From contig ML992513.1 of NCBI GenBank assembly GCA_010093995.1, positions 369,203 to 433,202 on the forward strand: a stretch of 64,000 nucleotides of DNA, given 5' to 3'. This document shows, one piece after another, positions 25,836 to 62,414 of this stretch. The notes beneath the pieces were generated by a model. The model worked only from the letters and a program-made list of their open reading frames with translations, ran no database searches and had not been told where the DNA came from. This DNA comes from Elsinoe ampelina. Its lineage: Eukaryota. Made by a program: the position numbers and the translations under genes. The stretch's first letter is position 1, and every line of letters begins with the position of its first letter.

Positions 25836-26009
25836 TCATCCTCGCGCGAATTTCGGAATTGGCTGCGCGCTGATCGATCGACTTCGACTTCTTTTCCCAA
25901 AAGCTGCCTGACACGACGCGACGACCAACAACTACAAGTATGTAAACGAGCTGGGAGCCGACATGCAGACACTACGGCTACGCACCGTCCATCCAAACAG
26001 TCTGCGGCA

Positions 26010-38750: not shown

Positions 38751-39769
38751 ATGTAGTGTGGCATGCGAGATGCGAGGAGGTGAAAGGACGTGGCATGTGT
38801 CTGACGGACGCAGGATGTGGTAGGTGTCTTTCAGACGGTAAGTGATCCTCTCTTGCCCATGTCCGTGCACCTGTTGTGTCAAGGTATATATTATTTCGTG
38901 CCTGTCTGGTGTTTCACGGGCGAGATAGGGGGGAAATAGTAGACGGATCGCACTTGTGTAGTTCGCCGAAGAGCCCTTCGTTCCAACAAAGGTGACCATC
39001 ACTTGTGGTGTGATCCGGAGTTCGAGTCTCGTCCGTAATTCATTTTTGCGCTTTTTGGCCGTCTCTTTGGTCTCAGATTGGCAAGGGGGAGGTGACATAT
39101 GGAAGCATGTGCTCGCATGTGATGCTTGGCGGTGGCGGAACTATCTCTTCACTCGCAGAAGTTTGCGTCCCTTTTCCGCAATTTGAAATGCGTGGCGTGT
39201 TATAATAGCATGAGAAGTTGATTCAGAGAACTGGTAGTTTCAGACATAGCTAATAACTACCAGATCTCTGACATCGTGATTCGAGGCTCACAGCTTCTTG
39301 TTGACGGACTTGTAGGTGCAGCAAGTCGGGACTTATCTGAGATAGTGTTGCGGAGGACTCTGAGTTATTGCGAACGGAGAGGTCAGCTATACTTCTTCCG
39401 CTCTGCGATCCGTTAGGGGCGATGCTGGTGGCAGCATAGGTCATGATCCGTTGTCATTGAGGTGGAGAGCAGTGTCGAAGAGTACATTCAACACGGCTGT
39501 TTCGGATTTCAGTGATATTTGGACAGTCTATGATACAGGTCTCCGCATTCGCAACACAACCTTGGAATCTGCTGGGTATCAGTGGTGTACAGCTGTTTCG
39601 TGTTCCATCCGGCCACCCCAGGCTTGGCGGAACGCTGAACGACATGTCGTTACCAAAATTGGCTAGCCAGAGGTCGAGATTAGTTATTTGCCATATAGTT
39701 ATTAGTATAGCTAAAATTAGTCGGTTTTTGAAGCTCAAAAAAGGTGTAATAGTTGTCTAGTTACTTCTA

Positions 39770-40740
39770 TGTGCTACTATACCTCCTTATATCGATAAGG
39801 CTAAGCTAGCTAACCTTATTATAATTTGTCCTTCTTACTAATAGCTATAGCAACTACGCTATCTACTACAAGCTATATATCTCTCGCGCGACTATTTGTA
39901 ATATTTAACTCTCTCTTAAATTCTTTAGAGAGTCTTATCTTTCTTTTTTAATATATATCTAGTATACTTAGTATTTTATCTCCTTCCTTAAAGCTTAGCT
40001 CTTTATATATCTTACCGATATACTAATAGCTTATCTCGATAAGTTATAAGATTAGCTATTTAAAGAGTATAGTAAGAGGTTTAGATTAACTACTATTTAG
40101 AAGGCTATTAAGTAGTAGAAGTAGTCTTAAAAGGTTACTTAGAAGAAGGCTATAGAAAGAGATAAAGTTTTATATATAGTATAGTTATAAAGGTGTAAAA
40201 GCTAGCTAGCTAATATAATTATTTACTTAGATAAATCTAGTTATAATAAGTGTACTAGCTAGAGGTATTATAGCTAGTTACTAAAAGGTGTTAAATATAA
40301 GAATAGTTAGCTAAAGACTTATACTAAAAGGTAAAGTATACTTCTAGCTATTATAACTAGAGGATACCTCGAAGACACGCTTATCTACTATAGCTCGATT
40401 ATAGGCCTTATCTTCTAAGATTAGCTAGAGTATACTATACTACTATAACTCGAGCCTAGTATAATTATAGTAATAGATAATATATTAATCTACTACGTAG
40501 AAGAGGTATAAAGAATAGTTAAAGAGTATAGATTATACCTTAAGTACTTACCTCCTTATTCGCTAGATTTTAATTCTATTAAGGAGAGCTTCTTAGTACT
40601 AAAAGCGTAAGTAAAGAAGTATTATAACTTAGTCTCTAGCTATTAATCTTTTAGTAAATTCTTAGCTTATAGAGTTAGTTAGTATAGTAAAAAAGACACT
40701 TGTAATTAGTTTTAGCACTATAGATATAATATAGAGTAAA
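39770..40740 (+). pseudogene. RIP-inactivated DD34E transposase of element A
   Basis: De-RIP YLDES (~40222), IMDN..IH (~40472) and YLPPYSPDFNxIE (~40545), with 34 codons between D2 and E. Confidence 0.85.
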
Positions 40741-42222
40741 TAGAGCAAATAGTATAAAGATAGAGATAAGATTAAGCCTATAAAAAAAAGTACTAAGTCT
40801 TTATTAAAAACTCTATACTACTAGTACTATATACCTATACTACTCCGCTAGCTTATATAAGCTAGATTACGCCTTCTAGTTCGGTAGCTAAACTAAATTA
40901 TACTAACTTATACACTAAGATAGAGCACTATCTAGCTTAGCTACTAAGATAGACTATTTTAATATTAGTATAAGAGTAGCAAATTAGGCCTATCTCGGCG
41001 GCTAAGCTAGATAGCCTATAGCGTTATTAAGTTAAACTCTTTAGCTTTATCTTCTTCTACTTCTTCTTCTCTTAAAGGTTAGAACTCTAAGGGTTTCTAC
41101 TACTTCTTAAACCTTAAGATCTCCCTCTTAATTCTTACTAGTAACTTCTTCTTTAACCTCTATAACTTAGTCTACCTCTTCTCTAATACCTTATAAATAC
41201 TATTAACGTTAAATTTAGCATCTCTAAGGTAGAGAAAGACTTATTTTAACGCTATATACTTACTCTAAAAGGCTAGCTTCTACTTAAGATACTTAAAGAA
41301 GTTAAATAACACCTTAGTAGTGTTAAATTATAAGTACATTAGTAAAGATAGAGAAGTAGCTACTATACTAGTATAAGGCTAAGAAGGAGATAGTATACTC
41401 TATGTATTTATATTATACACCTATACTATTACTAGTAAAGTTAATAGTACTCTACTACTACTACTAAGTAGAGAGAGGTAAGGCTACTTCTTCTTAGTAA
41501 TAGTCCTATTAGTCTTTAATTTACTTAATTTAAGTACTAGAGAGCTATAATTAGAAGAGTCTAATATAGTATACTTACTAGCTTAAGTAGTAGCTATCTA
41601 TATAAGCTAGATTAGACTATCGATTAGATAGTGCTCTTTATATCTATTAACTTAGTAAAGACACTTATAGTTAGAGCACTAATTACTAACGCACTACTAG
41701 TGCTTAAATAATAGCTCTTTATTACTTATTATAGACGACAAATTTAACTACTAGCTTATAGTTATACTCCGCTAACTACTCTAGCTTATATTAAGCTCTT
41801 TAACCTTATCTCTTAGCATAAAGGTAGACATAGTAGATATTGTTTCTAGCTATAAAGAAAGGCTAACTAGTATAGTAAGCCTCGGCCTTATACTTTATAA
41901 GGCTAGTAAAGGCTAAGGAGGTGCTTATAAAGTTACTAATAGAGTTATTAGCTACTCTAGCTTTAAGAAGGTATACTATAAATCTATATTAAGCTTATTA
42001 TAGCCTTCTTCTAACTAGCGCTCTAGATCTAGCACTAGCCTATTAATATTTAATTACTTGTCTACTATAAGCTTATAGCTCTAGTTCTTCTTTAATTTCG
42101 TATATAAGGCTACTAAGCTTATATTCTTTAGCTTTAGAAAGTACTCTACTATCTCTTTAGCCTTAAGCTTAGTCTATAAGAGTAATTAACTATATAACAA
42201 TTTAGCTAGCTCTCTATATATC

Positions 42223-45200
42223 TATTATGAACTGTCTAAATATAGTCTACGCTAGTAGTCTAAGCTAAGCTAAGAACGAGGTAGTTCTACTTCTATAGTA
42301 GTATAGTACTAAGGTAAGAGTTAGAGAAGGTATATCTTATAGATAATAAAGTACAATTAGATAGTATTATAAAGGCTAGCCTTAGTAATACTAGTGTTTG
42401 CTATCTAGACAAGGTTAACTATAGTACTTATATAAGGTAAGGACTATTCCTATATATATATGTTCTTTACTATATGCTCTATATACTCTATATGCTCTAT
42501 AGCGAGAGTTAGGAGTAATATAGAGTATACGTCTACTAGTAACCTACGCGCTCTATAGTTTTAGAGGTAGAGCTACTAGAGAAGATAGAGAACTAGGTAA
42601 ATGTCGGGCTAGGTTACGTAATAACCTTAGTAGTTTAATTAGTCCTAATGTCTCTATACTGTAGCTGTCCTACTAGTTTATAACATTACTCTTCTTCTTT
42701 AATTAAGTTATTCTAATAAGTAAGTATTCTTCCTTGTCTTTATACGCTATATACTAAATATGCCTCCTAGTTATTAAAGGTATAGTAAATCTAGTACCTC
42801 CGTATAAAAGAATCTCTCGGAGTTTATTAAGCTATTTAGAACTAATATGCCGTAGGCTTATTCTTGTTATAAATCGAAGGGGCTAAACTATAAGGTCTAT
42901 GTTTAGTTAGGTATCTATAGCTAGTATGTCGTAAGTAACTACTTAGGTTATAATATTTAAGTAACAAAATTAAAATAGTAGCGTCTCTAGTCTAAGTATA
43001 TTCGTTTACGAAAGGAATTAGTTATAGCTAAGACTACTAGAAGAGGAGCTAAAGAAGCTTATAAAAAGGCAAAAGAGGCTTATTAAAGAGCTATAGATAA
43101 TAAGCTTCGCCTACGCGAAGAGATATAAAAGTTAAAGAATAAGGCAGAGGAAGTAATCTCTTTAGAGGAGATCTATATTCGAGTCCTAGAGTAGGAGGAA
43201 ATACTATTATTAGTGGATCCCGTCCTACTATAGGACTAGTAATTATTTATGCCTAACTCCGACTAGAGTTCTCTATTTAGCAACAATTAAGGCACTTCTA
43301 TTAGCTAAGTAATCTTCCTTAGGTATTCTCGTTTTTGTTTAGTATTAGAAGTACTAGGTCCGTCTAGTTAGTTTACTTAGGATAGGTTCTTGATCTAGTA
43401 ACCTAGGATTACTTACGAGGTAAGGTGCTCCTCTAGTTCCTATATTACTTCGCTATACTAATGTCCCTTCTAGTAAATAAGATAGTAGCGTTTTCCTTTT
43501 ATAAGTTTATAACGTAAAATCCTTTTAATCTTATACTATAGCTCCTATGTTTCTTTATCTAGTTTAATAGGTCTAGGTATAGCGTTCTATAGTGCTCTCT
43601 CTAGTAGTAATATATAGAAGACTAGATAGATCCTTATATATCTTAGTAGTTCTAGTTTATATACGTTCTTGTTTTTCTTTTCTAGGATTTTAAAAGGTCC
43701 TAGTTTAGTATAGTTAAGTTTCTTACTTAGTCTTTTAGTCTTAATGTTCTTACTAAGGAGATAAACCTTCTCTCTCTCCTTTAGAATTAGTCCTATAATT
43801 CTCTTCCAGTTAGTAAACTCTACTATTCTTTATAATATAAATACTATATTATAGTATAGCTAGTCGTGTAGTTTCTTAATGTTAGCTACTAGTATATTAG
43901 CATCCTTAGATATTAGCTTAATTCCGAGTATATCGTAGTATAGATCTAGGTATATTCTATAGTTTACGTAAAATAGTAAAATTCTATTTACTAACTTTCT
44001 ATTATTAATAGCAAGCTCTACAAGTAGTAATAGTATTACTTATAAGTCTTACTTATAGTTTAGGTAGCATTGTAGGTACTACTCTAGTACTTAATTTGCC
44101 TATTTAGTTTGTCTGTCCGTTTATAGATAAAAGGAAGTTAATAGCTTATATTTAACTCCTAGTAGGTCTATAAATAATTACTAGAATTATAACGTAAATA
44201 GCTTATCCCTGTTAGTTATTAGGTCTCTTAGTACTCTATGTTATAAAACAATTATTTAGAGAAAGGTAAAGGCTATATCCTCGGTAGTTACTATTATCTT
44301 ATATAGTATAAAGTAGTAATACTTTGTAAATCTATCTACTAGGACTAGAATACTATTGTACTTTACACCTATAAGAGGTTCTTCTAATAGCAGTAGAGGT
44401 CCTATAAAGTCTATCGTAACTAATTACTATAGTTTATCTAGTAGTAGTAAGAGTTATAATAGGCTATATAGCTTATATCGTAAGTGCTTAGACTTATAGC
44501 ATGTATTATATATAGTAATATACGTCTTAACGTCGTTTTAGAGTCCTTTCTATAGGTAGTTTTATATAATAAGTTTAATAGTCTTATTAATCCCGCTATG
44601 TCCCGCTATTAAGTTATTATAGTATATTTAAATAACTTCTTTCTTCTATTCTTACGTAAGCTCCTAGGTAAGGCTATATAACTACTTTACCTTCGGGTAC
44701 TTATAGACTAAAGTGCTATCTTACTACTTTAGTATAGAGGCCTCTATTATTGTTATATTCTTTAAGTAGTCTAGTTATTAGCTAAGAGCGTCTACTCTAC
44801 TATTCTCTAATCCCTTAATATAGTAGATCTAAAAGTTATAGCTTATAAGTGTTTCTAACTATTAAACCTATTATCTATTAAGAACCTTAGTTATTGTCTA
44901 ATATAATAGGTTCTTATAGTCGGTGTAGACTTATATAGGTAAGGTTATTCCTTCTAGGTATACTCTCTACTTATAGAATGCCTCTATAATTATAAGTAAC
45001 TCCTTATTATATATGTCGTAGTTAAGTTTAAGTCTAGTTATTTTTTATAAGTAGTATATAATTAGGTAGCGTTATTCTTCTACGTCCTTCTATGCTAGGT
45101 ATACTTCTATTATAAAGTCCAAGGCATTTATTTCTAGTAGTACTTATTAGTCTAGGTCGAAGAGTACTAGGATAGGTACTATTATAAGTCTAAGCTTTAG

Positions 45201-48200
45201 CTCCTTAAAGGCTTACCTATATCTCTTGTTAAAGACAAAGCTAGTTTTCTTTTTTATAAGGTTAGATATTAGCGTAGCTACTTTAGAGAACCTCTTAATA
45301 AACTTATAGTAGTAGTTAAAGAACTCTAGTAGCGCTTAAACCTCCTTAACTGTTGTAGGTTCCGGCTAGTTATTTACTAACTCGATCTTCTTTAGATTAG
45401 GTCCGATACTATTAGTAGATATAATATAGCCTAGAAATTATATCTTATACTTATAGAACTTATACTTAGAGAGTTTTACTAGTAGGTCTTTCTCTTTTAG
45501 TTTCTATAGCACTTTACGAATATGTCTTATATATTTGTTATATGTCTTTAAGAAGATAATAATATTATCTAAATATACTAAGATAAAGTTATTAAGGTAT
45601 TCTCGTAGAGTGTTATTAATTAACTCTTAGAAGGTTATAGGAGTGTTAGTTAACCTAAAGGGCATAACGAGGTACTTATATAGACTCTATTATGTCCTAA
45701 AAGCTGTTTTCTACTTCTTGCTCTCCTTTATTTATACTTAATAATAGACATCTCTAATGTTAATTACAGTAAACTATTTAGCTCTAAGAAGTTAGTCTTA
45801 AAGTTTGTTAATCCTTAGTAGAGGATAGCAATTCTTCCTAGTAAGTATATTAAGTTTCTAGTAATTAATATATATTTATAATGTCCTATCCTTTTTTAGT
45901 ATAAAAAGCACTCCGTGTGTAATAGGTAATTTTAATAGTTATATAAATTCTTTAAGTAAGTACTTATCGATATAGTTCTTAAGGACATTCTTCTCTTATT
46001 TCGATAGTAGTATAAGACCTTAATAGTATATTAGGGATTTACCTTCTTCGAAAGGTATTTTGTAATTCTATAGTTTATATTAAGGTAAGGCTATAATACC
46101 TTCTCTTTCTTTAAATAAATCCTTAAAGTCTTTATATTCCGGTAGAAGTGCTTAATTACTTACGCTAGCGATAGCTCTAACTATTAGTTATACCTATACT
46201 ATTCTTATAGTTAGTATCTACGGAGCTAATTATGCTCCCTACGTTCTATAATTACACTTAGGGAATTTAAGTGTTTCTTTAATTTAGTCTACGTCTAGAT
46301 TATATTATTAAAGCTAGTCTATACTAAGTACTATATCGTACTACATGTCTACTATATCGATTAATCGTTTTTCTATATATGTTCTAATTTTAATTATAAC
46401 GTTTTATAGTTCCTAAGTAACTTTCCTATTCTTCCCTATAGAGGTTCTATCTACTATAGTAAGTAGGTAAGGTAACTCCTTCTAATGTTAATAAGGTTTA
46501 AGCTAATTAGCAATTGTTATAGAGATATAGCTATAGTTAGCTCCCGAATCTATTATTGCTCTTACCTTATTTCCTTATATCTAGACTTCTAGTATAAAGT
46601 AATTTAACATGTAGATCTTTATTATATTAAGGCTTTAGCTAGTGTTATTATCTTACCTTCTTAGGCGACAACTAGCTAGTTTTTTGTCATTATAGCGCCT
46701 TAGATAAGTAGTTAATCCCTTCCCGCATGTATCTATTATTAGTACTATATCTACTAGGTAAGTTATGTTTTGTCGCTATTTAATATAGCAAGGTAAACTT
46801 CTAGCGCCTAAGTCCCTTAGTAACTATAAAGTCTAATAATTCTCTACTAATTACACCGAGTAGTATTATACACCTATATTAGTATAACTATCCTCTCTAG
46901 ATAGGGCTAGGTGTTTATGTTAAAGACAAACGTAGGTTAAGTAGATTTATCTTATCGTGTTCTATTCTAGTAGTAGGTGTATATTATTATATAGTTTCTC
47001 TATATCCCTATAAGGTATGTCTTAAGTTGTCTACCTAGTAGTAGTACGTTATTATTGTTATTGTCGGATAAGTCTTTATCTATATTGTTATATTATAGTC
47101 TTTTAGTGTATTCTTCGTTATATTTCTCTTCGTCGCTACTACCCCTAGTATAGTTATAGTTAGTAAGGCTATACTAAGTATATTCTTGTACTTAGCTATA
47201 GAGAATAGTACTACCTATTTCGATTACCGAGAAGTCTATAGTGTATTTAAGACTAATAGTCTCTTCTCTAAGTACATTGTATAAGTAGATAGTATAGTAC
47301 TATTTATAATTTAGATTTGTACATTTCTAGAGTAATATATAATATACCTTTCCTTATAGTTTACTATAAGAGCTAAAGGTAAGGCTACTATGTTGTTATA
47401 TAACACTTGCATCCTAATACTTTGTTTTAATAATTATATATTAGTAATTGTCGCTAACTACCTTCTAAGGTTAGTCGATATTACTACTAATTATAGAGAG
47501 CTCTTCTAGGTTAGGTTTCTAGTCTAGCTATTTCGTTAGTTGCCTATGCTTAGATAGCTTATATAGGAACTAACTAGATCTTTACTTGTCTAATAAGTAA
47601 ATATAATAAGAGTTATTATAATATACTATCTATAATAGCGTCGCGTATTAGCTTTGTTATTTACTATCGGTCGTAGAGATATTAAGTATAATATCTAGAG
47701 AGGATTCTATTACCTCTTAAGTCGTTATAGACTCCTTCTATGTTTCCTTATCTATGCTAAAGGTTGTTAGGTCTTCTATAGTAGTGTTAGCCTTTTTTTC
47801 TACTAGCTCGGCAACTATTATATATAATTTATTAGCTAGTGCCCCTTATTAGTAGTCCCTAGCCTAATACCTAGGTCTTTTATACTTAAAATATAAATTG
47901 TCTCGTCTATACTTCTCTCTCTCTTTTCTACTAAGGAACTTTCCTCTATAGCTGTAGCCTTATACCTATAAGGGGCAACCTTCGCGTATAGTATTAAGTT
48001 CTATAGAGTCTCTATAGTTTCGGGAGAAATATATATATCTAGTATTTACCTTATATCCTCTATAACATTCTATATGTCGTTTATAAAGTTGGTTATTAAT
48101 AGCAATTGTAGTATCTACTAGTTCTTAGAGGTTATTAGGCAGCTCGAGTATTATTTAGTCTTTGACTAAGTTACTTAGTCCTTAGTAGAATACTAAATAT

Positions 48201-49243: not shown

Positions 49244-50139
49244 ATACCTTTCTATTATAGTACTTACTCTTACTAACTATAATGCCTAATCTTACCTCTA
49301 CCTTACGCTACTTAATATCTATTGCTAAAGGTACTACCTCTATCTCTACCTACGCCGAGGCTAGAGTAATCTCCTCTACCTCTACTAACTAGTATACTCT
49401 TAACTTACTTAGTATTAGAGAAGTAGTTATATACTAGCTAGAGTATATAGCGTCGTAGTTAAGTAATTACATAGCTTAACTAGTAAGATCTAGAAGGCTA
49501 TTTAGATTGTAAGATATACAAGAATAGTTAATAGTAGTAGCTATAGATAACACTTATAAGTAGTTAGGGTTAATAAAGAGATATAAATAGCCTCTTAAAG
49601 AAGAAGAAGAAGAAGGTAATAGCGTTATTAGCCTTCTTATACTAAGTCGAAGAGTTATACTAGAGCGCCCTTATAGTAGCTAAGAGGTTTTAAAGCAATT
49701 ATCGTTACTATATACTATAAGTGACACCTTTATATAAAGGCTTAAATTAGTAAATATAGAGGTAATTAACTAATTATAGTACGTAGCTCTTTAGCTTTAT
49801 ATACAATTTATAGCGATAATAAGTGTATTTACGCTATATTAATCTATAACTCTTACTACTTCTCTACTAGCTAATTTTTGGTAGTGTAGTTACAAATCTA
49901 GTTACTAAGCCTAGAGTAGCCAGATAGAACACGAAATAGCTATATAGTTAAATTCGCTTTAAACGAGCTACCCCCGGGCTTAGTAATAGTTTATACCGAC
50001 CTTATGTTACTAGAATTTAGTAGCTAGAAGTCTAGATAGAATACTGTCGAATTAAAGCTAAATTAAAGCTTAAAAAAGATATAACAATAGCTATACTACT
50101 TAAATTAAGGTGTCACTATTATAGTTAACTATCGAATTG

Positions 50140-53100
50140 CTCTAATTAAGCTAGTAGAGGTACAATTCTTACTTACTAAGAGGTATATTGATCGCGGCGT
50201 ATATAGCACTACTAAGGTTACTAGAGCTACTATTCGTTAGATTCGTCTATCTCTCGAGTTCTTTAGTACTCCTTATCTACTAGTCGATACTTACGCCTTA
50301 TAGCCTTACGCTCTCTTATAATAGAAGAAAGATATAAGCCTTATCTAGCTAAGCTCTTTTAGTACTAATCTCGTAAAGGACGTAATAGTCTACCTTAACG
50401 ATATTTCTACTACCTATATTAACGAAATCTAAGACTTCTTACTAGAGATTTATAACTACTAGGTGTCGATAAGTACTATCTAGAGGACAATTTACCGCCG
50501 GCGGTAGAGTTAGAAGGTAGCTAAGAAGGTAGCAGCGGAGAGAGATATAGTACTAAGGAAGAACTAGAGCTATTAGTATAAGCTATAGCTAGTAGAGTAC
50601 ATTATCTACATCGACGAGTCGGCTTATAATAAACAGACAGCGTAGAGGAGATATAGCTAGTTACTAGTAGGTAAAGAGTATATAGATATCTAGCTAAAGT
50701 AGTATAGTAAGAGGTAGAGCGTTTTACTAGCTATATCTATTAATAGCTATCTTCCTAGTACCTTAATCTACTATAGATCGATTACTAGTAATATCTTTAT
50801 TAGCTAGCTAAGAGATATAATATTACTAGAGTTACTAGCTAGCATAATCTTAGTAATAGATAATGCATTAATCTACTAGTATAACGAGGTAAAAGTAATT
50901 ATAACTAGTAAAACAAGAGGTTAATTACGTCTATTCGTTAAGATATTAAGACTTAGAAGAAGAAGAAGAAAAGCTAGTATACAAAGCACGTATAATATTA
51001 AGGGCGGAGTAGCCGGAAGCCCGGGCTATAATACTAAGATTATATAACTAATCTAAACTAGATCCTAACTAAATCTAGTTCGTATCTATCTTATATTACT
51101 ACTTTCTCTCTTAAGCGTATTTACTCTTAAATACTATTATATATTATTTATTAATCTATTTCGGCCTTAGCTTATCTAATAAGAGTCTAGATAGTTACGT
51201 AGCATATCGGCTACTCCTTTAAGATTGTTAATTAGCTACTAGGTAAGATTCTCTAGATAGCCTTTCTAGCTTATATAAGTAACTAGCTTTCCTTATAGTA
51301 AGTATATATTAATTATATTATTTACCTTATACTTCTCTTTACTATCGACCTCTATTAGAGGTAGTTCTTTAAAGGCTTAGCCTAGTAAGGGATTGTTCGG
51401 GTGTTTAGTAAGTAGATTAGCGTAAAACACTAAATAAATCCTTTATAAAGAGGCTAGTAAATTAAGCTTATATACTAGTAGTAATTGTTTCTTAAGGATC
51501 TTATAGAGACTAACATACTTTAGTAGTAGCTTTAGATTGCCTTATAGCTAGAGGTTCTTCGTCGATAGCTAAACTAAATCGCTAGCCTCGAACTCTATTA
51601 GCTAGTAGTACTTATTAGCTTATTCTACTATCTATAACTATATAATAGTAAGGTTAGCCTTAGTAATAGCTAGTGCCTCTTTTAGTTGCTTAGTAAGTGC
51701 GCAGATGTCGACCTTATTTAGCTTAGCTCTTATTAATAGTGTATTAGAAGGGGGCTAGAAGCTTAGCCTTAGCTTATACTCTCTAGTAACCTTAAATAGC
51801 AATAACTTAGTACTCTCTAATAGGTTAATATTAGCGGAGAATTCTACGACTAGTAGAACAAGTGTCTAATTACTAAAGCGTATAGCGTATAAATAGATAA
51901 CTTACTTAAACTTACAATTTATAACCTCTAATTAGCTATCTATTTATAGATGCCCTATAGTAGACAGTTTAGTAGTAATCTTTAAGATTTAGTAGAGCCT
52001 CTTCTATACGTCGCTAACGAACTAAGGGCCGCGATCCGAGGTAATACTATCTAGTAGACTATATAGTTTCTATACGTAGAAGAATAATAGCTTAGTAGTC
52101 TTAAACGCTAAAGTACTACCTTCTCCGGAGAAGTATAGAATTAAGTACTATTCCTTAGATAGGTAGTCGACGATATAGAGTACTACGTTATAACTATCTA
52201 CTAAGGGTAGACTAGTAACAAAGTCTATAGTAATGTATTGCTATAGTCTTACCGGAATAGGCAATAGAGAGAGGAGACTAGCTAGTAGGCTATAGTAAGC
52301 CTTTAACTATTTATAGTTATAGTAGTTAATAATAAACCTCTTTATATTACTATTGTATCTAGGAATATAGAAGGTAGTTTTAATTATAGTAGACGTCTTA
52401 GTAGCTCCCCTATATACGTAGTCTTTTAATGTATAAACCTCTTAGATAACTTTTATAGCTATAGAGAAAGGCACGATTAATCGGCTATCGGCCTATAGTA
52501 TCCCCTTCTCGATTATAACATTAGTCGACAGTAGCTATTTCCTCTTTAGGAAGGCCTCTATTATATAGTAGATACCGCGAACTGTTTCGAAGTTAGAGTC
52601 TTATAAGTTAGCTTTAGCTACTTTATTAAATAATAGTAAAGTTTACTCTCCTAAGGTCGAAATAGGTACTATATAGGTGCCTAGCTCGCGAGCTAAAATA
52701 GGCAGCGAACTAGTTCCTAAACTAGGTCCTAGTTTAGAAGCCGAACTAGATAGTAGTATAGGTAGTAAACTAGACAACGAACCGGTTCTTAGTTTAGCTT
52801 AAGTTACGAATCTAGTTTAGATACGGCCTAGATTTAGTTCGTTAATAATATACTAATTAAGCACTTTATGTAGTAATAGCGTCTAGCGTAAGTTAGGGTT
52901 CTCCTTTAAGCGTAGTATATCTCTATTCCTCCTTATAAGGGCGTTAGCTTTACTATTAGCTATACTAGGCCTATATATAATTTTAAAGTTAAACTACGCA
53001 AGGTAGAGGGCCTAGCGTGCTTAGCGGCGTAATAGCTTCTAAGTCTTTATAAAGTGCATTAAGGATTAGTAGTTAGTAAGGACGTAGATAGCCTTATCGG

Positions 53101-56100
53101 ATTAAGTACTTATAAGCTTAGAGGCCTACTCTTCGAAGGCTTAGATAATAGCTAGTAGCTCCTTATTATAGATAGCATAGTTATACTTAGCTTTGTTTAT
53201 AGACTTGCTAAAAAAGGTAATAGGCTAGAGAATGTTAGACTTGTTGTATTATAATAGAATTCCTATAGTAGTAGTATTAGAAGCGTTAGTCTCGAGAACT
53301 ATCTACTTTAAGTAATCGAAATACGTAAGAATAGGCGCACTTATAATAGTGTACTTTATATAGTTAAAAGCAGTAGTATATTTATTGTTCTATAGCGTAG
53401 CATTCTTCTTAAGTAGGTCGTTTAATAGCTTAGCGATAGTACTAAATCCCTTAATAAAGTAGCAATAGTAGCTATAGAAACTAATAAAGCTTCTTACCTA
53501 AGTAGTATTACTAGGAGCTAGCTATTTCTAGGCTTGTATAGCTTCTATCTTCTTTAGATCTATTTTAACTCTATCTTAGCTAACAATAATACTAAGATAC
53601 TTTACCTCCGTTAGGTAGAACTTACTCTTCTTAATGTCGGCGTTTAGGCCTAATTCGTAGAGCCTCTAAAGCACTAGCTTAATATACTTAGTGTGCTCTT
53701 AGTAGAAGCCGTTCGTATAGATAAGAATATTATCTAGATAGATTAATATAAAGCGCTCTAGTATATTAACGAAGTTATAATTTATAAACCTCTACTAGAC
53801 TATAAAGGCATTAGTAAGGCCGAATAGTATTACTAGCTACTTAAAGTTACCTATACGTATAGAGAATATAGTAAGATCTTTACTATTAACGGAGTAATAG
53901 AGACAGTAGAAGGCTTAATAGATATTAATCTTACTAAACTATTTAGCCTTACTTACGCGCGTAAGTGTTTCTTTAATAAGGAGTAGAGGATAGATGTCTT
54001 ACTTAGTTACCTTATTAAGGCTATAGTAGTTAATATAGAGACGAAGTTCTCTATCTAGCTTATAAATAAAGAGAATAGGTAAGAAATAGCTAGTAGAACT
54101 TAGTGTAATAAAGCCTTTATTAAGATATTCTTAGATGAATTATTCTACTATATTAAGTTCTTCTAGTAATAGGTAGCGTAAAGGCTCTATATATAGTAGC
54201 TTAGTACTATCTTTAAGTATAATACAGTTATTAAAATCCGGCCGATGCTAAGAGAGTATATTAGATTATTCTTTAGAGAAGATATTAGTAAACTTCTATA
54301 ACTCCTCTAGGAGAACTACTATAGGATTTAGTTCTAGCTTAGAGGCTATCTAGTAGTAGTCTTTAATATTCTTTACCGAGATTATAAACACCTCGTTCTC
54401 TTAGTATTTAGCTACTAATATAAAGGCAGCTACGCCGATAAAGGCGATAGTTAGCTCTTCTTATTTAGCATTACTTACGTAGGTAGGTACGTAGAAGAAC
54501 TTATATATTAACTAAGTACTATAGGAGATTAGCTTAAACTCTCCTTAATTTAGCTTAAAGTTTAACTTAAGAGCTAGTAGCTAATATAGTCTAGTTTGTC
54601 CTAACTTAGTAGCCGAGCTAGAATCTAGTTAGCGAGCTAAACTAGAACCGAACTAGTTCTAAACTAGAATAGGGATTTTGCCGAGCTAGATTCCTAGATC
54701 TAAGCTAGGCTTAGATCTAGATCCTAGCCTTTTAATTAGCTATAGTAGCTCCTACTTAATAATAACTAGTAAAAACTCTTCTTTGTACGTGACTTAGCTA
54801 TGCTTATAGTCGATAGTAGCCCTATTAGCCTTAAGCTAGCTAAGGCTAAGGATAATGTTAAATTAGCTAATATCTATAATACGAAAGGTAGTAAGGTTAT
54901 TTAGCTTACTAGAAACGGTAGTAGTAAGGGGAACGCTATATATAACTTGCTCTATTAGAACACTATTATAGGCTTAAAGCTAAATAGGGCTAGCTAGTGC
55001 TACGGGGCAGCTAAAGCTCTTTAGCTTATTAAGAATGTTATAATTAACTACGGCGCTAATAAGCGCGCTAGTGTCGATAAAGGCTTAAAGTGTAATAGTA
55101 TAAGAGTAGTTATAAGAGTTATAAATAGTAATAGGAGTTATAATAGCGGGGATATAGTAGCTAATAACGCTATTTAGTAACTATATACCTCTAGATCTAT
55201 CTTAAATTACTCTTATTTCGCTAGAGAATAGGACTTGTCCTCCGGCTACTTATTTCTCTAGCTAGAGTAGCTAGTAGACTTATAGTCTATTTCGGGGTTA
55301 AACTAAGGCTAAACTAGATCTAGTTCGTAGGCCGAACTAGTATTAACCTAGTTACTTAATTTAGCTAAGCGATCCTAAAGCTACTATATCTCCTTTACGG
55401 CGCTAATATATATAGAGTATATAGTAGCGTAAGTAGCCTTCTCTAAGGCGCTAGCTATACACTTAGTAGAGATATGTCTAGGCTTACTACATGCGTAATA
55501 GGTAAGTACTAGAGCTAGATAGAAAGGCTATAGAGTACCTCCGGTAATAGAGTAGAAGGTAGGTAGAGCTATAGGTATAGAGGTAAAATAAGGTACATAA
55601 GTAGGTATAGTAGCGGCGTAGCTTATAGCTAGCATAGAACACAAAGCCTAAGTGCGCTTAGTAATAAGGTTGTTCTATTAGATATTATAGTTAGTAGCGT
55701 AGGCCTTAGTAATAAAAGTAGTAAGGTTATTAGTGTCGTAGTTAACTAGAGCATTGCGTAGCTTATTAGATATCTTCTAATAGATCTAGTATAGCTACTT
55801 CTCTTTAGCAATCTTAGCGTAAAGGGCGTACTTATTAAACTCACTAATAAAGGAGTTAAATATGCTATTACGCTAGAAGAGGTTAGCGAACTAAGTACGT
55901 ATAGTAGCTCTATAGTTAGGATCCTTAAAGCGCTAGGCTAGGAGAGTAAGGACCTCTTCGACGCTAATAACGTTATTACTAGCTAAGTCTATAATAAGGG
56001 TATAAGCTTCTCTAGAGAGGCGTAAGTATAGATAGGCAAACTAGGTATCTCTTATAGAGAAATAATCTACGTTAGTATATATCTTATTCCTTATCTAGTA

Positions 56101-57390
56101 CTTAAAGACCTTAAACTACTCTAGTATACCTATGCTAAAGACGGTAGGGTCTAGTATCTTTTCTAATAAGATAGAGCTATATATAGAAAGAGCTAGTATA
56201 CTACGCTCTATTTCGTTTTTTAGTTAGTTTACCTTAGCCTTAAGCTCTTAGATTTTGTCTAGGTAGTAAGTAGCTTAGGTAGTAACGCTATTAGTATAGA
56301 ACTAAGATACGTCTAGTTTAGATTAGAGGTTACCGAGCTAGGCCTAAGTAGTATCTAACTCGTAGTAATAGTAGAGAGTATTAGTATAAGCGCCTTTTAC
56401 CTATGTAGTTTACTTATTATAGAAGAACTTAATATAGTTAAATATATCTCTTAGTGCCTATATACTATACTCTTCCTATAGCTTCTTAAGGAGTATAGCG
56501 TTAGAGAGAGTAAAAAGATTATAGTAGAGAGAGTAGATAGAAGCGTCGTTATTATCGGGGATAGATTAAAGTAGCTTACTTTAGTAGCGCTCTTCGTTGC
56601 TATAGTTAGATCGAGCTATACTTAGCGTAGTTAGTTATAAATAAAATAGTATAAAACGTTAATACGTAATAAAGGGAATATTAAAATTTTTAGCCGGTAG
56701 TCTACTTCCTTTAAGAGTCGTCTATAACTTAACTTATTACCTTCTTCTTATATCTTTAAGGTTTATAGTATTAACCTATATAGTAGTAGCGAGGATCTAT
56801 TATAGTATACGCGGGAACTATAGTTATAATAGCTTCTTCTTTAATTCTTTAATTCTTTATAAGTAGTAGTTATTAGTAGTTATATAAGTAGTAGAATAAC
56901 TAGATAATTTAATAGCTCTATTACTTAGTTGTAGTTGTTACGAAGTCTCGATATAGCAATTACAACTAGCAAAATAAGAGGTTAATTACGTCTATTTGTT
57001 AAAATATTAAGACTTAGAAGAAGAAGAAGAAAAGCTAGTATATAAAGCATATATAATATCGAGAGTAAAGCGGCTAGAAGCCTAGGCTACAATACTAAGA
57101 TTATATAACTAATCTAAACTAGATCCTAACTAAATCTAGTTCGTATCTATCTCGTATTAAAAAGAGCTAGTATAAGAGTATAGAAGTTACCTTAAATACC
57201 TACTACTATATTTACTAGATTTTAATCTAATCGAGTAGTCGTTTATAGTGTTAAAAGCGTAGGTAAAGTAATACTATAATCTTGTTAATAGCTATAACAA
57301 TTACATCGATTTCTTAGAGCTAGTAGTAATAGCATATAGTAGATAGTATACTAAGATACACTTTAAGAGCTACAGATATAGTATAAAGTT
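50140..57390 (+). pseudogene. RIP-inactivated DD34E transposase of element B, split by gypsy 2 (ends approximate)
   Basis: IYIDESA (~50604), VMDNA.IH (~50853) and YLPPYSPDFNPIE (~57197); removing the gypsy restores EVKELV and the 34-residue D-E spacing. Confidence 0.85.
50896..57159 (-). mobile_element. RIP-degraded Ty3/gypsy LTR retrotransposon 2, nested in the transposase of element B
   Basis: 203-bp LTRs at 50896-51098 and 56957-57159; TSD AAAAG; RT IYLD(D)ILI near 53735; integrase SITSDRGPQFV near 52030. Confidence 0.92.
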
Positions 57391-57449
57391 ATAGGAGATT
57401 TATATTAGCTTATAAGAGATTACTTATGTTAAACAATTTAATACTAAGA

Positions 57450-60400
57450 AATAGTAAAAACTCTTTATAGCTATACTTCTCTCTCTATACTACCTCTATA
57501 CCTCTCTAAGTTAAATTAATTAATCTATCTCGGCAGCTAAACTAGATTAATGCCTAATTCGCTAGCTAGTAGAGACAATCTACCTATCTTAGCTAGCGAA
57601 ATAGCTATTTTACTAAGCTATAAGACAGGTAGCTTATCTATTTTAGCTACTAAGATAGGCACTAATATTACCTATATTAATCTACCCTAGCTCTTTTAAC
57701 TATCTTAGCGTAGTACTAGCGCTTAAAGAGGCTTATCTAGTGTTAAATCTAGTAAAGGAGGCCTTTATTAAAGGCCTAGTTATTTCTCTATCTATCTACG
57801 TAAATGTCTCTTAATCTATTAAGATTATAATTCTCCTTTTTTAGCTTAAATTCGACCTGAGATAATAGCTTAATATTGCCTCTAAAGCTTCTCTTACTCT
57901 TTAGCTAATTAAAAAATTTAGTTAATACCTTATAGAGATTAGTCTTAAAGATAATAGGTAAGGATCTTAGTTTAGTAGAAGAAGGCATAGAGCATATATA
58001 AGAGTTTAGAGCGATTATATTAGTAATATTAATATAGTTAATAGAGGTTGTTAAAGGCGCTAGTAGTGCTAGCGGCGCTAGTAGTACTAGCGGTGCTAGT
58101 GCTAGTATTAGTATTAGAGGTGTTAGAGAAGTACTTAAAGAGATACTTCTTATACTACATAGCTTACTCTAATTAAGCGACAGAGCAAGGCCTAGAGGAG
58201 ATTACTTAAGTAAGGCTCTACTGTTACGAATAGTACTAAACTAAGTAAGCTTATCTATTATAGAGACTCGTTAGTGCTTACTAGTAACAGTGCGCTAGTA
58301 AAGGCCTTAATAGTTAGTATAGCTACGATCACTATAACTCTATAAGCTCTCTAAGTCCGGCTCCTTATTGCTATTTACGCCTTTAAGCGCACCTTGTACG
58401 TCACGAAAATCCTAAGGCTAGAACGGCTGGAACGGCTGGCGAGCGCTAGCCTCGCTAGCGAGCGCTGGCGGCGCTAGTAATAACGTTCTCCGCGGGATAC
58501 GAGCTACCCCCAGGAAGCAAGCCCCCCTTTAGAAGCTAGAAAGCGGTGAGATAGGGCCGAAGATACCCCGACAAGCTAGTTTTAGTGAGAGATGTACATC
58601 TTGGCATACCTTATAGCTTCTTAATCGATCGAGCTTGTTGTTGACCCCTTTAATCTATATCGTTAGTATAGAGGCTCTTAAGGCTAAGGCTTAGAGTTAG
58701 TGTTTTTAGCTTATAATTAAGACCTTAGAAAGCGCTAAAGAACCTATTTTACAGTGTAGAATTGCTTCCTTATGTCCTTTAGCTACATAGCACTATTTAC
58801 TAACTCTAGCTATCTCTAACCTCTTACTATAGAGAACTTATCTCGGCTTAACTAGCTTAACTAGCTTAACTGTTTAAGTGCTTAATAATAATCTCTTTCT
58901 TCTCTACTACCTTCTCTATTACTTATATAGTAGTGTTAGCCTTATCTACCTTAACGCTATTAACCTCTAGTGTGTATTAATAACCTCTTATAGCCTCTTA
59001 CTCTTTCTTAGCTATATAGAGGCGTTAGATAGTAGCTTAGTAATCCTTTACGGAGTGTTAGTATTAAGCTTAAAGAGTTTACTAGTTAGCTATAGAGGTA
59101 GATTAACAAAGTTACTTAGCTAATTTAACTCTCCTTTTATAAGTCTTATTATACTTTTTATCTATATTAACTACCTTCTTATTAATAGCTAACTACTTAC
59201 TAACCTTTTTAGTACTAAGTACTACTTCTCTAGAGAGGTAGCCTCTCTTCTACTTCTTCTATAAAGTCTTCTTCTTAGCACGCTAAGTGACCTTATAGAG
59301 TTAATTCTTAAGCAAGATAGCCCTCTACTCCTCTACCTCCTTACCCTTATAAGCTTAGATAAAGGCCTTATAAAGTTGTTAAATTACACTCTATTAGTAG
59401 CTAATAACTCGCTACTAAGCATCGATACGTTACTTAGTAAGGTAATTAAGCTTCTAGTAGAACTACTAGTTGGTTTTAATAGGGGTATTACTAGTTAGTA
59501 AAGAGTTAAAGGATTAGTAAGGGGGTATTAAAGGCAGTAGAGAAGTAACTTCTTAAGGAGTTAAGAATTATAAGAATTATAAGAATTATAAGAATTGTAA
59601 GGATTGTAAGAATTATAAAGGCTATATAGATTAATATTAAATTTGTACAATTACAACCTCTAAATCGAGAGGCATTAATCTAGTTACTCTAAAGGCTATT
59701 ATTTGCTTAAGCTCTTTAAACACTTTATTACATATAGTAGTATAAGCCTTAAGGAAGTAGTACTTATTAATCTAATTAATCCTCTTATATATAATATTAT
59801 AGATTGCCTCTTAATAGTTGTACTTTAGTTATAAGAAAATTAAAATGTTAAGAGGCTAAAGAAAGTAAGAGGTATAAGGTAGTAGCTTAGCGAGGATAAT
59901 ATAGTACTTATAGGCTAGCTAGATAAATTCGGCTATAAGGTATAAGTAATAACTGTTAAGGATAAGTAATCTCTAGTAATATTTAAGATTCTTCTTCTTT
60001 ATAGCCTTACTATTATTATCTACTAGCTAGGTATAAGGATTAAAGTGCTCTTTTAACTAGTAGAGAGTAATCTTATCGTTTAACTAGCTAGTTAGTAAGG
60101 TAGTAATAGAGGCCTCTTTACATAAGAAGCGCGCTAGTAGTTAGATTAGCTCCTTAATCTAATTCTCTATTAGGGTCTCTTCTTTAAGAATAAAGAAAGA
60201 AGGTACTTAACAGCTAGCTATATTAACTATTTTAATTGTCGTAGCCTACTTACGCTAGCCTAGCTACCGTAAATAGGTTTAATACTAATCTTATATTCGT
60301 GCCTATATCTAATCTAACTCTATTACGCTAATATAGTAGCTAATTTCGTCTATATTATAAAGGTTATAACCCTTAACTTAGTACTTCTAATAGAGGCCTC

Positions 60401-61900
60401 TAATAAGGTTATACTAGTGCCTAATCTTGTTAAAGTTCTCTATCTCTTCTAAACGAACAATATCTATAGCTAGACGCTATGCTATACTAATTTCGTAGTG
60501 CCTTTATCGAAAGCGCTTATACTAGTGCGTACTAAGAGGCCTAAAGATAGTATTTAGTAGTAACTTTAAGGTTTGCGATAGAAGTAGATAAGTGTAATCT
60601 ATAAGCTAGCGACTACTAAGATTAAAGCCTCTACTAGCTAGAAACTCGATTAAGCTAATAAGGGCTTATTCTTAACTAGGTATAAGTCGTTACTAGTGTT
60701 AATATAACTCGAAGTATAATACTTACTTACCCTTTAGCTAGTGACTTAGAGTCTTACGTTTTACTAAGAGAAGCGTTTTATAAGCTAATAGATAGAAATT
60801 GTGCCTTTTAAGGCTTAATACTTATAGATAGCTATAATAATTTACTCTTTATAGTGGATTTTAGCAGTTGTTAGTATTACGAAGTAGTTTATATTAGGTA
60901 AGGAAGTATAAGATCGAGGGGTAGATTATAGAAGTTTTAATTACTCGATTAGGCAATAGAATCGGGGCAAATTTAGCACCTCCGATTAGCTTCTTCGGGC
61001 CGTTTATCTATTTTAAGAATATTAGCTAAGGTAGGCTCGCTTTCTAAGAGTAGCTTATATCTCTACGGAGAATATTAGCTAGGACATAGAGTAAGCTAGA
61101 AATGCTAGAAACGCTAGAAACGTAGCAATCGCTACCGTTTCTAAGCGTTTCTAGGCTTTAGGATTTTCGTAACGTAATTAGCTTATTACTAACCCTCGGC
61201 CTTATAAAGATTATAACTACGATAGTACTAACTTAACTAGAGGTATAGTCTACCTTACTAGAGCTAGTCTAAGGCTTAAAAACTATAAAGGCCTTAGTAG
61301 AGGTACTATTAAAGAGCTTAGAACTAGTATAGTTAAGGCTAGCTATACTACTTAAAGAGGTAGTATAGAGTTTATAGCAGCTATAGACTTTTTTACCTCG
61401 GCTATAAGGCTAACTCTAAGTAACTAGCGGCCTTCTTTAAGCTACTCTATAAGCTTATTAATTAGCCTTTATATCTTAGCTAGCTAGAAGAAGGCTAATT
61501 TCTATACGTTACTACGACTAAGGCCTTTATAGGTAGTAGAGCACTTAATAATAAGTAGCTTAAGTTAAGCTTAAGTAATAAAGCTAGTCTTCTCTAGTAA
61601 CTACTCCGAGATTAATAACTAGCTAATATTAATAGCCTCTTTAAACATATACTTATTATTAAATAGCGTCTTACTACTAAGCTTTACTACTAATTTTACC
61701 TCTACCTTATAACTATAATATAGAGTATCTAAGTTATCTAGATTACTCTCTAGTAACTCTAGTAACTATAATAACTCTAGCACTTATATAGCCTCCTCTT
61801 ATGTTATATTTACTTCTTTAACTAACTACCTTAGCTAGTCTCTTACTAGTGTTAATCTTATCTAGAAGTGTGTTAGTTATACTATAGCTTAGAAGGCATA
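57450..61900 (-). pseudogene. RIP-inactivated second ORF of element B, split by the pogo element (ends approximate)
   Basis: De-RIP LWSCSDRSCTNYQGLCWRTVTGKH at 58274-58345; blocks shared with the second ORF of element A. Confidence 0.6.
58399..61174 (-). mobile_element. RIP-degraded pogo/Fot1-like DNA transposon (2776 bp), nested in element B
   Basis: TIR CGTCACGAAAATCCTAA.. / ..TTAGGATTTTCGTAACG with TA flanks; DDE_1-type de-RIP motifs LILD..H (~59960) and LPPHTSHFLQPLDI (~59845-59890). Confidence 0.88.
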
Positions 61901-62414
61901 GCGTATAGCTTGCTTAGTAAGTCGCTTAAGAGCTTAGTTAGTATTTAGAACACTTAGATAAGCTACTACTAGAGGTACTTAAGGTACTAGAGTGTATAGT
62001 CTAATTATTAGTCCTTAGTAGAGGTGCTTCTTTACCTTATCTAGAGAGCTTAAGGAGAGGGTTAGTAACTATAACAATTACCTTACTAGTAGCGACAATA
62101 GTAGTAACAACGCTAGAAGGCTAGAGCCTATCTCTATTGCCTCCTACGCCGCTCTAGAGAGTCTCTTTATATAGCTAGTATAATAGCTAGTCTATATAGT
62201 AGTACGCTTACAAGCTATAACTACTAGCTTAATCTATACTAGTACTCTATTACACCTTATTTCAGCTTTAATTTTTACTTAATTTAGCGCTAATAACGAG
62301 CAATTACTATCTATATTATCTCTAGACTTTTAGCTACTAAATTTTAGTAATATAAGGTTAGTATAAAATACTACTAAGCCTAGAGGTAGCTTGTTTAAAG
62401 TAAATTTAACTATA

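Follow-up and report, generated by a model that had tools for sequence, protein, structure and literature searches.

A conserved convergent coding region beside the DD34E transposase in RIP-degraded Tc1/IS630-type transposons of Elsinoe ampelina

Tc1/mariner elements are the standard example of a minimal transposon, consisting of one gene and two ends and needing no host factors, and they are used as gene-transfer tools because of this simplicity. In MuDR of maize, two convergently transcribed genes (mudrA and mudrB) lie between long inverted ends, and the second encodes an accessory protein. In PIF/Harbinger elements, which generate a 3-bp target duplication, the second protein binds DNA and works with the transposase. 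PIF/Harbinger elements move by cut-and-paste, and their canonical form is described as encoding two proteins (PMC13668399). Within the Tc1/mariner group itself, the account of the ciliate TBE and Tec families in PMC7325037 gives DD34E transposases and three ORFs inside the ends. Tec is described there with one ORF on the complement strand, ends of ~700 bp and a site-specific recombinase, and TBE with a zinc-finger (zinc-finger/kinase-type) protein and telomere-like tips. The starting point of the preliminary description of the locus studied here, that a transposase is the sole product of canonical Tc1/mariner elements, must be qualified for these three-ORF ciliate families (PMC7325037).

The window analysed here is a 64,000-nt stretch of E. 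ampelina DNA (GCA_010093995.1, contig ML992513.1, positions 369,203 to 433,202, forward strand). Its AT-rich, RIP-degraded interval 39590-62412 contains two Tc1/IS630-type elements that sit end to end, with limits read from the sequence as 39590-49942 (element A) and 49945-62412 (element B). TA dinucleotides at 39588-89, 49943-44 and 62413-14 flank the elements, the middle one being common to both. The inverted ends are ~90-100 bp long and homologous to one another in a four-way alignment, the ends of A aligning with each other and with those of B. Inside the ends, both elements carry a plus-strand transposase and ~2 kb of further DNA. Without their nested insertions, A measures 3322-3327 bp and B 3424-3427 bp, close to the earlier figures of 3327 and 3421 bp. 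The features are listed in Table 1.

Table 1. Features of elements A and B and of the insertions nested within them (window positions)
Feature	Position	Strand	Remarks
A left terminal inverted repeat	39590..39680	+	starts CAGCTGTTTCGTG; TA 39588-89; four-way end alignment
A transposase relic	39783..40898	+	DDE_3, DD34E spacing; 372 codons, 37 of them stops
A ORF2 relic, C-terminal two thirds	41085..42220	-	Cys/His motif 41598-41699; SAM-like domain 41103-41315; one-frame alignment to B, profile match to P0003
Ty3-type LTR retrotransposon splitting A ORF2	about 42221..49246	-	LTRs 42225-42695, 48783-49253
A ORF2 relic, N-terminal part	49247..49850	-	alignable to B only to 49304; remainder low-stop, same phase
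A right terminal inverted repeat	49851..49942	-	end alignment, sequence reading
B left terminal inverted repeat	49945..50043	+	85% inverted match to 62414-62314, over 101 bp
B transposase relic, first part	50118..50893	+	alignment to A transposase
LTR retrotransposon splitting B transposase	50894..57159	-	LTRs 50894-51098, 56955-57159
B transposase relic, second part	57160..57547	+	alignment to A transposase
B ORF2 relic, C-terminal part	57692..58398	-	Cys/His motif 58241-58342; SAM-like domain 57719-57931
2.78-kb TIR element splitting B ORF2	58399..61174	.	TA duplication; unclassified
B ORF2 relic, N-terminal part	61177..62313	-	alignment to A extends to 61708
B right terminal inverted repeat	62314..62412	-	TA 62413-14; end alignment

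The Pfam family DDE_3 (PF13358) matched two stretches, A and B, the A transposase scoring 69.4 bits (E 3.8e-19, cut-off 28.6). The two transposases share 40% identity across 395 columns (E 2e-54). Between the second Asp and the Glu lie 34 residues, with no gaps from VxDN to NPIE in four aligned rows (A, the metagenome contig L001 considered below, and two intact relatives); the Glu position reads Lys in A. Their domain, Asp-Glu spacing, ends and flanking TA place A and B in the Tc1-like DD34E group of the IS630-Tc1-mariner superfamily, and both have the terminal inverted repeats and TA target-site duplication of that group. They depart from the canonical single-gene layout in having a second conserved coding region (ORF2), on the minus strand inside the ends of A and B and also present beside the L001 transposase.

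Nested insertions from outside the family interrupt both elements. The LTRs of the insertion in A are 93% alike, and RVT_1, RNase H and integrase domains lie on its minus strand; the LTR insertion in B has repeats 88% alike and RNase H domains, again on the minus strand. Both were counted as Ty3 retrotransposons. The element within B ORF2 has 22-nt ends that are 91% complementary, with TA on both sides as read at the junctions, and matched 0 Pfam families in six frames.

In a single minus-strand frame, A from 49304 to 41103 aligns with B from 61708 to 57719 across both insertion joints, the B frame on the 61177 side being continuous with 58396 when one TA is kept. The full-frame alignment covers 414 columns at 25% identity (39.3 bits, E 1e-6). 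The C-terminal half alone scored 34.3 bits, a value reached by 0 of 100 dinucleotide shuffles of B (mean 19.1, maximum 25.8 bits); control comparisons with five further RIPed regions of the window gave 19.2-21.2 bits. The four short shared blocks reported in the preliminary description were found at ~49286/~61690, 41631-41693/58274-58336, ~40937/~57643 and ~40881/~57530, and three block patterns searched each had two matches in the window, against 0.00-0.02 expected from 100 shuffles. The last block had been assigned to ORF2, and is placed here instead in a region where A and B continue to align in the frame of the transposase.

A profile built from the ORF2 relics of A and B, 266 positions long and free of transposase sequence, retrieved one protein at E <= 0.001 among 1,835,955,588, namely P0003 (E 2.1e-4; hhalign probability 93%). 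P0003 is encoded at nt 321-638 of L001, a 1,053-nt metagenome contig from an unrelated sample. The end of a convergent DD34E transposase (VMDNASMH...PPYSPDYNPIE) lies at 718-981 of this contig, 79 nt past the P0003 stop, and is 34% identical to the A transposase (E 2e-13). Because the P0003 contig carries this transposase end, the tail-to-tail two-gene layout is seen in three diverged copies. The preliminary description had proposed a search for intact homologues tail to tail with a DDE_3 transposase inside terminal inverted repeats; L001 has the tail-to-tail pairing, on a single contig and in a stop-bearing frame. The frame spans nt 3 to 638, begins RWPCVNTFYPNHGFSYWV...NHYPVPSEILRAW, carrying a W-x-C-x4-C...H-x10-W motif, and includes five stops, all TAG; only its last 105 codons are open. 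As a single sequence in tblastn, L001 ORF2 gave nothing against A or B at E <= 0.1. No intact full-length ORF2 was present among the three copies, all of which contain stops. The location inside the inverted repeats of A and B, the one frame across the joints and the convergent DD34E transposase on L001 bear out the earlier proposal that this extra coding region belongs to the family by inheritance and is not random filler, and ORF2 is, in our view, very probably a real, inherited gene of the family.

The Cys/His motif of ORF2 reads HXXCVSNXCSNYKCLYXVNRYKEH in raw A and LXSYSDRSYTNYXGLYXRTVTSKH in raw B. In L001, A and B, respectively, Cys1 is C, C and Y and Cys2 is Y, C and Y, Tyr variants that fit the RIP change TGY to TAY; one His follows the N and another precedes x10-W. 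A third Cys ('L-C-W') is unsupported because the position is Tyr in all three copies. The W-x-C-x4-C...H-x10-W motif proposed from A and B was recovered at the start of the L001 frame, without that Cys and with a 3-residue difference in the spacing to the last His. The label 'zinc-finger-like' holds only in part: it retains two Cys and two His positions, having lost one Cys, and has no Pfam match. WRKY/FLYWCH-like W-x-C zinc-finger types are a possible lead for this motif. The predicted fold of the 212-residue L001 reading had a pLDDT of 40.7, with residues 1-130 under 50 and unusable.

The SAM-like C-terminal bundle is the only ORF2 domain that could be characterized. There is moderate support for a resemblance of the C-terminal ~80 residues to a SAM-type five-helix domain, as judged from predicted structure. 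The first match in the ESM Atlas was a SAM-domain cluster (score 0.91, 186/256 features), and the AlphaFold model contained five helices (mean pLDDT 78.5). In a structure comparison, the best of 48,161 chains was the tankyrase-1 SAM domain (62/63 residues aligned, rmsd 2.7 Å) at Z 6.7, values of Z < 8 being common for helical models, and SAM domains made up roughly twenty of the best 50 matches listed. Foldseek returned no match to the domain model at E <= 0.001. In Pfam searches at E <= 10, P0003 matched neither SAM_1 nor SAM_2, giving only RecG_N (0.091, below cut-off); nor was SAM matched by the RIPed frames of A and B, which returned only Maelstrom (0.078, below cut-off).

RIP makes no transversions. 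Between A and B, transversions in the transposase affected 23% of first, 18% of second and 31% of third codon positions; the corresponding figures for ORF2 are 33%, 31% and 40%, from a protein-guided alignment that itself lowers differences at positions 1 and 2. By this measure, A and B are old lineages, not fresh duplicates. ORF2 could have begun as a captured host gene fragment and be a passenger that travels within the ends and contributes nothing to transposition: the SAM-like domain is a typical module of cellular proteins, no transposon-related family matched ORF2 in Pfam searches of the A/B frames and P0003, and ORF2 is more diverged than the transposase (25% versus 40% identity between A and B). 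However, three copies with no more than 34-40% transposase identity agree in position, strand and tail-to-tail spacing. Over the 18-31% transposase transversions that separate A from B, useless DNA should have disappeared or become scrambled, and it is the third codon positions of ORF2 that differ most. We consider such a passenger origin unlikely.

It is very unlikely, and already disfavoured, that the extra 2 kb is non-coding regulatory or spacer DNA whose frame and motif are by-products of DNA homology in RIP-biased sequence. The sequence is of low complexity with abundant stops in every frame, Pfam and word-index searches of the extra 2 kb found no match, and likeness at the DNA level is weak (RIP-tolerant local scores of 50, 44 and 38, against 30 for reversed B). 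Homology is nevertheless clearer at the protein level, the long alignment arises from the minus frame only, the 63-bp block (41631-41693/58274-58336) aligns with an indel of 3 bp, and L001 has 105 open codons with a compact helical domain in the predicted fold. RIP converts TGG to TAG and CAR to TAR, and as expected from this chemistry, the stops of A and B fall on Trp and Gln of L001 far above background: 6/19 stops in A and 8/14 in B, where these residues make up 11% of aligned columns. Of six aligned L001 Trp residues, four are stops in A and four in B.

In one phase of A, 44 and 53 of 623 codons (1.87 kb) are stops, whereas the remaining four frames have 84-94; the corresponding numbers in B, after correct joining, are 51 and 55 versus 81-106. 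This low-stop phase comprises the minus frame and its plus-strand partner (plus/minus 44/53 in A, 51/55 in B); the assignment of ORF2 to the minus strand rests on L001 and the A/B alignment, since stop counts cannot separate the two. A plus-strand ORF2, running in the transposase direction, is very unlikely: the partner frame has as few or fewer stops and yields one 30.4-bit match (A 42115-49416 versus B 61581-61853), but gives no long collinear alignment and encodes fewer charged residues (0.16 versus 0.22 in A, 0.16 versus 0.20 in B), and the L001 open frame and profile match run opposite to the transposase.

The family is repeated as a unit. Contigs on 39300-42330 numbered 578 from the source run and 111 from the run of another organism, the latter covering 28/30 bins from the left end of the element, the ORF2 part included. 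Contigs of other copies pass from 42220 directly into the 49247 sequence, and these loose contig ends show that copies without the LTR insertion exist.

Overall, we regard A and B as probably being RIP-killed copies, from diverged subfamilies, of a two-gene, cut-and-paste Tc1/IS630-type DNA transposon. The autonomous form would carry two convergent genes between inverted ends of ~90-100 bp. Gene 1, on the plus strand, encodes the DD34E DDE_3 transposase that recognizes the ends and inserts at TA, as its domain and spacing and the ends with their TA show. Gene 2, on the minus strand and tail to tail with gene 1, encoded a protein of at least ~395, perhaps ~590, residues with a conserved W-x-C-x4-C-x-N-H...H-x10-W stretch in its middle and a five-helix SAM-like domain at its C-terminus. 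More tentatively, this protein may be an element-encoded accessory factor, in which the SAM-like domain mediates self-association or docking, the Cys/His part binds DNA or the transposase, and the whole helps the transposition complex to assemble, reach the nucleus or find its target, by analogy with the product of the second gene in PIF/Harbinger or MuDR; this mechanism as stated is possible but doubtful. The roles in DNA or chromatin binding, targeting and anti-silencing suggested earlier are guesses.

A second gene retained through deep divergence in a fungal branch would show that Tc1/mariner elements can turn two-component, and ORF2 would be a candidate for a new accessory protein with a part in assembling the complex, entering the nucleus, choosing targets or evading silencing. 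We speculate, as a rather unlikely extension, that the family is an undescribed fungal Tc1-type lineage that needs a second protein combining a SAM-like oligomerization domain with a Cys/His DNA-binding module, which may shield the element from silencing or steer insertion, for example into AT-rich, RIPed or heterochromatic DNA such as that in which A and B lie end to end, and that it would be the first two-component Tc1/mariner lineage outside ciliates. No description of the two-gene family was found in print, Repbase and Dfam lying outside the search. For annotation, it matters that these elements have double the expected length and that ORF2 relics in RIPed, AT-rich fungal compartments might be taken for pseudogenes of the host or for unknown repeats.

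Among described systems, MuDR shares the two convergent genes between inverted ends, a likeness of layout; it differs in its Mutator superfamily transposase, 9-bp duplication and plant host. TBE and Tec share Tc1/mariner affinity, DD34E and extra ORFs inside the ends, and are set apart by their described features, with three ORFs against two in the A/B family (PMC7325037); the ends of A and B have no telomere-like tips. PIF/Harbinger is similarly a cut-and-paste element with two proteins (PMC13668399), but its transposase is of another superfamily, that of A and B being DDE_3, and a Pfam search of the A/B frames found no Myb/SANT-like match, the PIF/Harbinger partner type, in ORF2. The A/B family is most like the Tc1-like DD34E elements in its DDE_3 domain, 34 residues from second D to E, terminal inverted repeats and TA duplication, and differs from them in its length, about twice the usual, its second convergent gene and its rather long ends (~90-100 bp).

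From about 39.6 kb to the end of the window, G+C content falls from ~55% to ~30%, and TAA and TAG stops run throughout every reading frame. Such an AT-rich, stop-filled block is what a fungal genome shows after repeat-induced point mutation (RIP), a process that converts CpA to TpA and can act on either strand. Another AT-rich block lies at 21000-26000, where G+C drops to 0.11 within 23001-24000, and is flanked by gene-like regions of ~0.5 G+C.

The limits of two abutting elements, A and B, were derived from self-comparison of the window and alignment of four candidate ends. The reverse complement of the right end of A reads TAGCTATTTCGTG, the same word as its left end after two RIP-type changes, and the four-end alignment showed the ends of A and B to be related to each other. 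TA dinucleotides were found at 39588-89, 49943-44 and 62413-14. Between A and B stands only one TA (49943-44), which flanks both; one element entered exactly the TA target duplication of the other. Insertion at this common TA might point to a bias toward the family's own borders or toward RIPed DNA.

Both elements have been interrupted by later insertions. The retrotransposon in A has LTRs at 42225-42695 and 48783-49253 that are 93% alike; it differs from the retrotransposon in B, and both are RIPed. The TIR element nested in B showed no Pfam match across six frames, is less RIPed toward its left end (G+C 0.40 in 58001-59000) and includes, at 59562-59624, five tandem units of 9 bp. Minus nested insertions, A measures 3322-3327 bp and B 3424-3427 bp, in agreement with the 3327 and 3421 bp of the preliminary description. 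RIPed DNA carries on past the right end of B (62415-64000), a stretch in which no Pfam family was found in six frames and short palindromic matches occur at 62492-62536 and 63407-63441.

Features of elements A and B, and of the third copy on metagenome contig L001
Feature	Position	Strand	Details
Element A	39590-49942		starts CAGCTGTTTCGTG
Element B	49945-62412		ends 85% alike over 101 bp
DDE_3 transposase relic	left 1.3 kb of A and of B	+	PF13358, E 3.8e-19
Ty3-type LTR retrotransposon, nested in ORF2 of A	42221-49246	-	RVT_1, RNase H and integrase domains
Second Ty3-type LTR retrotransposon, nested in transposase of B	50894-57159	-	LTRs 88% alike
TIR element, nested in ORF2 of B	58399-61174		2.78 kb; 22-nt inverted ends 91% complementary, TA each side
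P0003 ORF	L001 321-638	opposite to transposase
Transposase end (...ILVMDNASMH...FLPPYSPDYNPIE...)	L001 718-981	opposite to P0003 ORF	79 nt past the stop of the P0003 ORF

The transposase relics of A and B share 40% identity over 395 columns (E 2e-54). In an alignment with the L001 copy and two intact relatives, the stretch from the second Asp (VxDN) to the Glu (NPIE) is ungapped, giving a spacing of 34. The DD34E spacing, the ends and the TA flanks together identify a Tc1-like DD34E element. Of 2533 candidates in a word-index protein search with the A transposase, 2 passed E <= 1e-5. At 40700-40898, the transposase-frame alignment of A and B continues for ~65 codons beyond the end of the L001 transposase; this region is either a longer C-terminal tail in A and B, or a conserved 3' region common to both convergent genes.

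Outside the transposase, A and B share little at the DNA level. RIP-tolerant local alignment scored 50, 44 and 38 at best, compared with 30 when B was reversed, and a global RIP-tolerant alignment was set aside as noise past the transposase. The short blocks that the preliminary description had reported as shared are real and improbable by chance, as judged by pattern searches; of the four that it placed in the second coding region (ORF2), the block at 40881/57530 does not belong there, as it still aligns in the transposase frame. In the extra region of both elements, one phase has the fewest stops along the whole length, a sign of an old reading frame on the minus strand or of its plus-strand partner. 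In the minus-strand frame, A 41741-41103 aligned with B 58387-57719 at 34.3 bits. Across 100 dinucleotide shuffles of B, the mean score was 19.1 and the highest 25.8, and five other RIPed window stretches used as controls scored 19.2-21.2 bits. This first alignment ended exactly at the nested TIR element of B. Once that element had been excised with one TA retained, realignment gave 414 columns in a single frame (A 49304-41103, B 61708-57719; 39.3 bits, E 1e-6), spanning both the LTR joint of A and the TIR-element joint of B. Contigs of other copies, in which 42220 joins directly to the sequence of 49247, confirmed the joint of A within a multiple of three bases. A six-frame profile scan of the window found no ORF2 copy besides those of A and B.

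A three-row MAFFT alignment (A5) was discarded because the motif of B was misplaced, and was replaced by a two-row alignment covering the C-terminal halves of ORF2 (A6). When 1.84 billion representative proteins were searched with A6 as a profile, a sole protein was recovered at E <= 0.001, the 104-residue P0003 (E 2.1e-4; 93% probability by hhalign), a singleton encoded on the 1,053-nt contig L001. The neighbouring transposase end has D-34-E spacing and is 34% identical to that of A (E 2e-13). Because A6 held no transposase sequence, the profile was blind to transposases, yet it found a gene tail to tail with one.

The ORF2 frame of L001 is readable over nt 3-638 apart from five TAG stops, and begins RWPCVNTFYPNHGFSYWV..NHYPVPSEILRAW, which aligns with HXXCVSNXCSNYKCLYXV..EHYLIDSLIXLIX in A and LXSYSDRSYTNYXGLYXR..KHXRVSIIDKLTX in B. 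Single-sequence tblastn of the L001 ORF2 against A or B gave no match at E <= 0.1, and the proposed link to A and B comes from the profile match, the motif and the adjacent transposase. L001 is lightly degraded (G+C 0.40-0.49), and a stop immediately upstream of 981 interrupts its transposase frame; the copy looks dead and mildly RIPed rather than active. A scan with the C-terminal alignment confirmed 0 of 601 pattern matches in prokaryote genome contigs and 0 of 597 in viral contigs.

The conserved core of ORF2 comprises ~395 codons (A 49304 to ~41090, nested element removed), and the low-stop phase reaches up to ~590 codons. No Pfam family names ORF2 in searches with four pieces of it and with P0003; a Maelstrom match, the sole match of the four pieces at E <= 10, was rejected as below cut-off (E 0.078). 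Searching the PDB by sequence gave three rows, none meaningful (best E 0.22). Word-index protein searches retained 0 of 6349 candidates for ORF2 of A at E <= 0.01, and 0 of 47 for P0003 against longer proteins; these blanks say little, because RIP-changed queries have few exact words in common.

Three lines converge on a predicted SAM-like five-helix bundle in the last ~80 residues of ORF2, which would be SAM-like rather than a SAM family member. In the ESM Atlas, a cluster of SAM domains came first for this region (score 0.91, with 186 of 256 features shared). AlphaFold modelling on an alignment of three rows gave a mean pLDDT of 78.5, with helices at 25-39, 46-61, 66-69, 74-79 and 84-103. 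The best row of a full structural scan was the SAM domain of tankyrase-1 (rmsd 2.7 Å, 62 of 63 residues) with Z 6.7, values of Z < 8 being common for helical models; SAM domains made up ~20 of the best 50 rows, with NusA helix-hairpin-helix modules close behind. Foldseek against the PDB listed 69 rows, none of them at E <= 0.001.

The zinc finger of the preliminary description is less secure. Two His positions are common to L001, A and B, and at the proposed third Cys each of these copies has Tyr. In the order L001, A, B, the other two candidate Cys positions read C, C, Y and Y, C, Y, which fits RIP of TGY to TAY. L001 departs by three residues from the spacing of A and B ahead of the last His, and the fold of the 212-residue L001 reading that includes the Cys/His part was unusable (pLDDT 40.7).

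Transversions separate the A and B transposases at 23%, 18% and 31% of codon positions 1, 2 and 3, and their ORF2s at 33%, 31% and 40%. As RIP yields transitions only, these values indicate that A and B are old subfamilies. The third position is the most changed in both genes; for ORF2, where the alignment was protein-guided, this gives weak support for constraint. Public contigs aligned to 39300-42330 gave 578 pieces from the source run and 111 from the run of a different organism, whose contigs cover 28 of 30 bins from the left end of the element on, ORF2 part included. Most differences were transitions, at 269 of 292 places for the other organism and 181 of 231 for the source run. From these counts and coverage, the family is multi-copy, and at least two organisms have it repeated as a complete unit that includes ORF2. 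Runs X5 and X6 of a third organism, with ~0.4 of the flank's words, gave no contigs on the element, which is not proof of absence.

All copies seen are dead. The family is a TA-inserting, TIR-bounded DD34E element in which a second, convergent gene has accompanied the transposase across deep divergence. Self-association or docking is the usual role of SAM-type domains, and a Cys/His stretch beside such a domain suggests nucleic-acid or partner binding; for these reasons, we propose that ORF2 may be an element-encoded accessory protein. Like the second proteins of PIF/Harbinger and MuDR, it would contribute to assembly, delivery or targeting of the transposition complex. We hold this role tentatively, as possible and somewhat short of probable.

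The explanation that competes best, though unlikely, is a passenger captured from the host and long kept. Non-coding filler would suit the weak DNA likeness. However, the stops of ORF2 fall on W or Q of L001 at 6 of 19 positions in A and 8 of 14 in B, with a W+Q background of 11% of aligned columns, and of the six aligned Trp of L001, four are stops in A and four are stops in B. RIP of TGG and CAR codons would produce this pattern, which non-coding likeness could hardly explain. Coding on the plus strand, from which stop density and the share of charged residues are unable alone to tell the minus frame, fares worst, as the open frame and the profile match in L001 run against the direction of the transposase.

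Among the matches listed in literature searches, there was no fungal Tc1/mariner element with a conserved second gene and no SAM-domain transposon protein; supplementary files of the papers may list fungal Tc1 elements with extra ORFs. The parts consulted of PMC4112212, PMC3441728, PMC9977792 and PMC5751038 make no mention of a second-gene fungal Tc1 element or a SAM-like protein. As a multi-copy family in sequenced genomes, this one may well be present, without a name, in repeat libraries. The statement of the preliminary description that canonical Tc1/mariner elements encode only a transposase was too strong; the ciliate TBE and Tec elements are multi-ORF Tc1/mariner families with three ORFs, according to the portion of PMC7325037 consulted. 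Elements A and B belong to the Tc1-like DD34E group on the strength of transposase, ends and target site, but their gene content departs from the single-gene layout of canonical Tc1-like elements.
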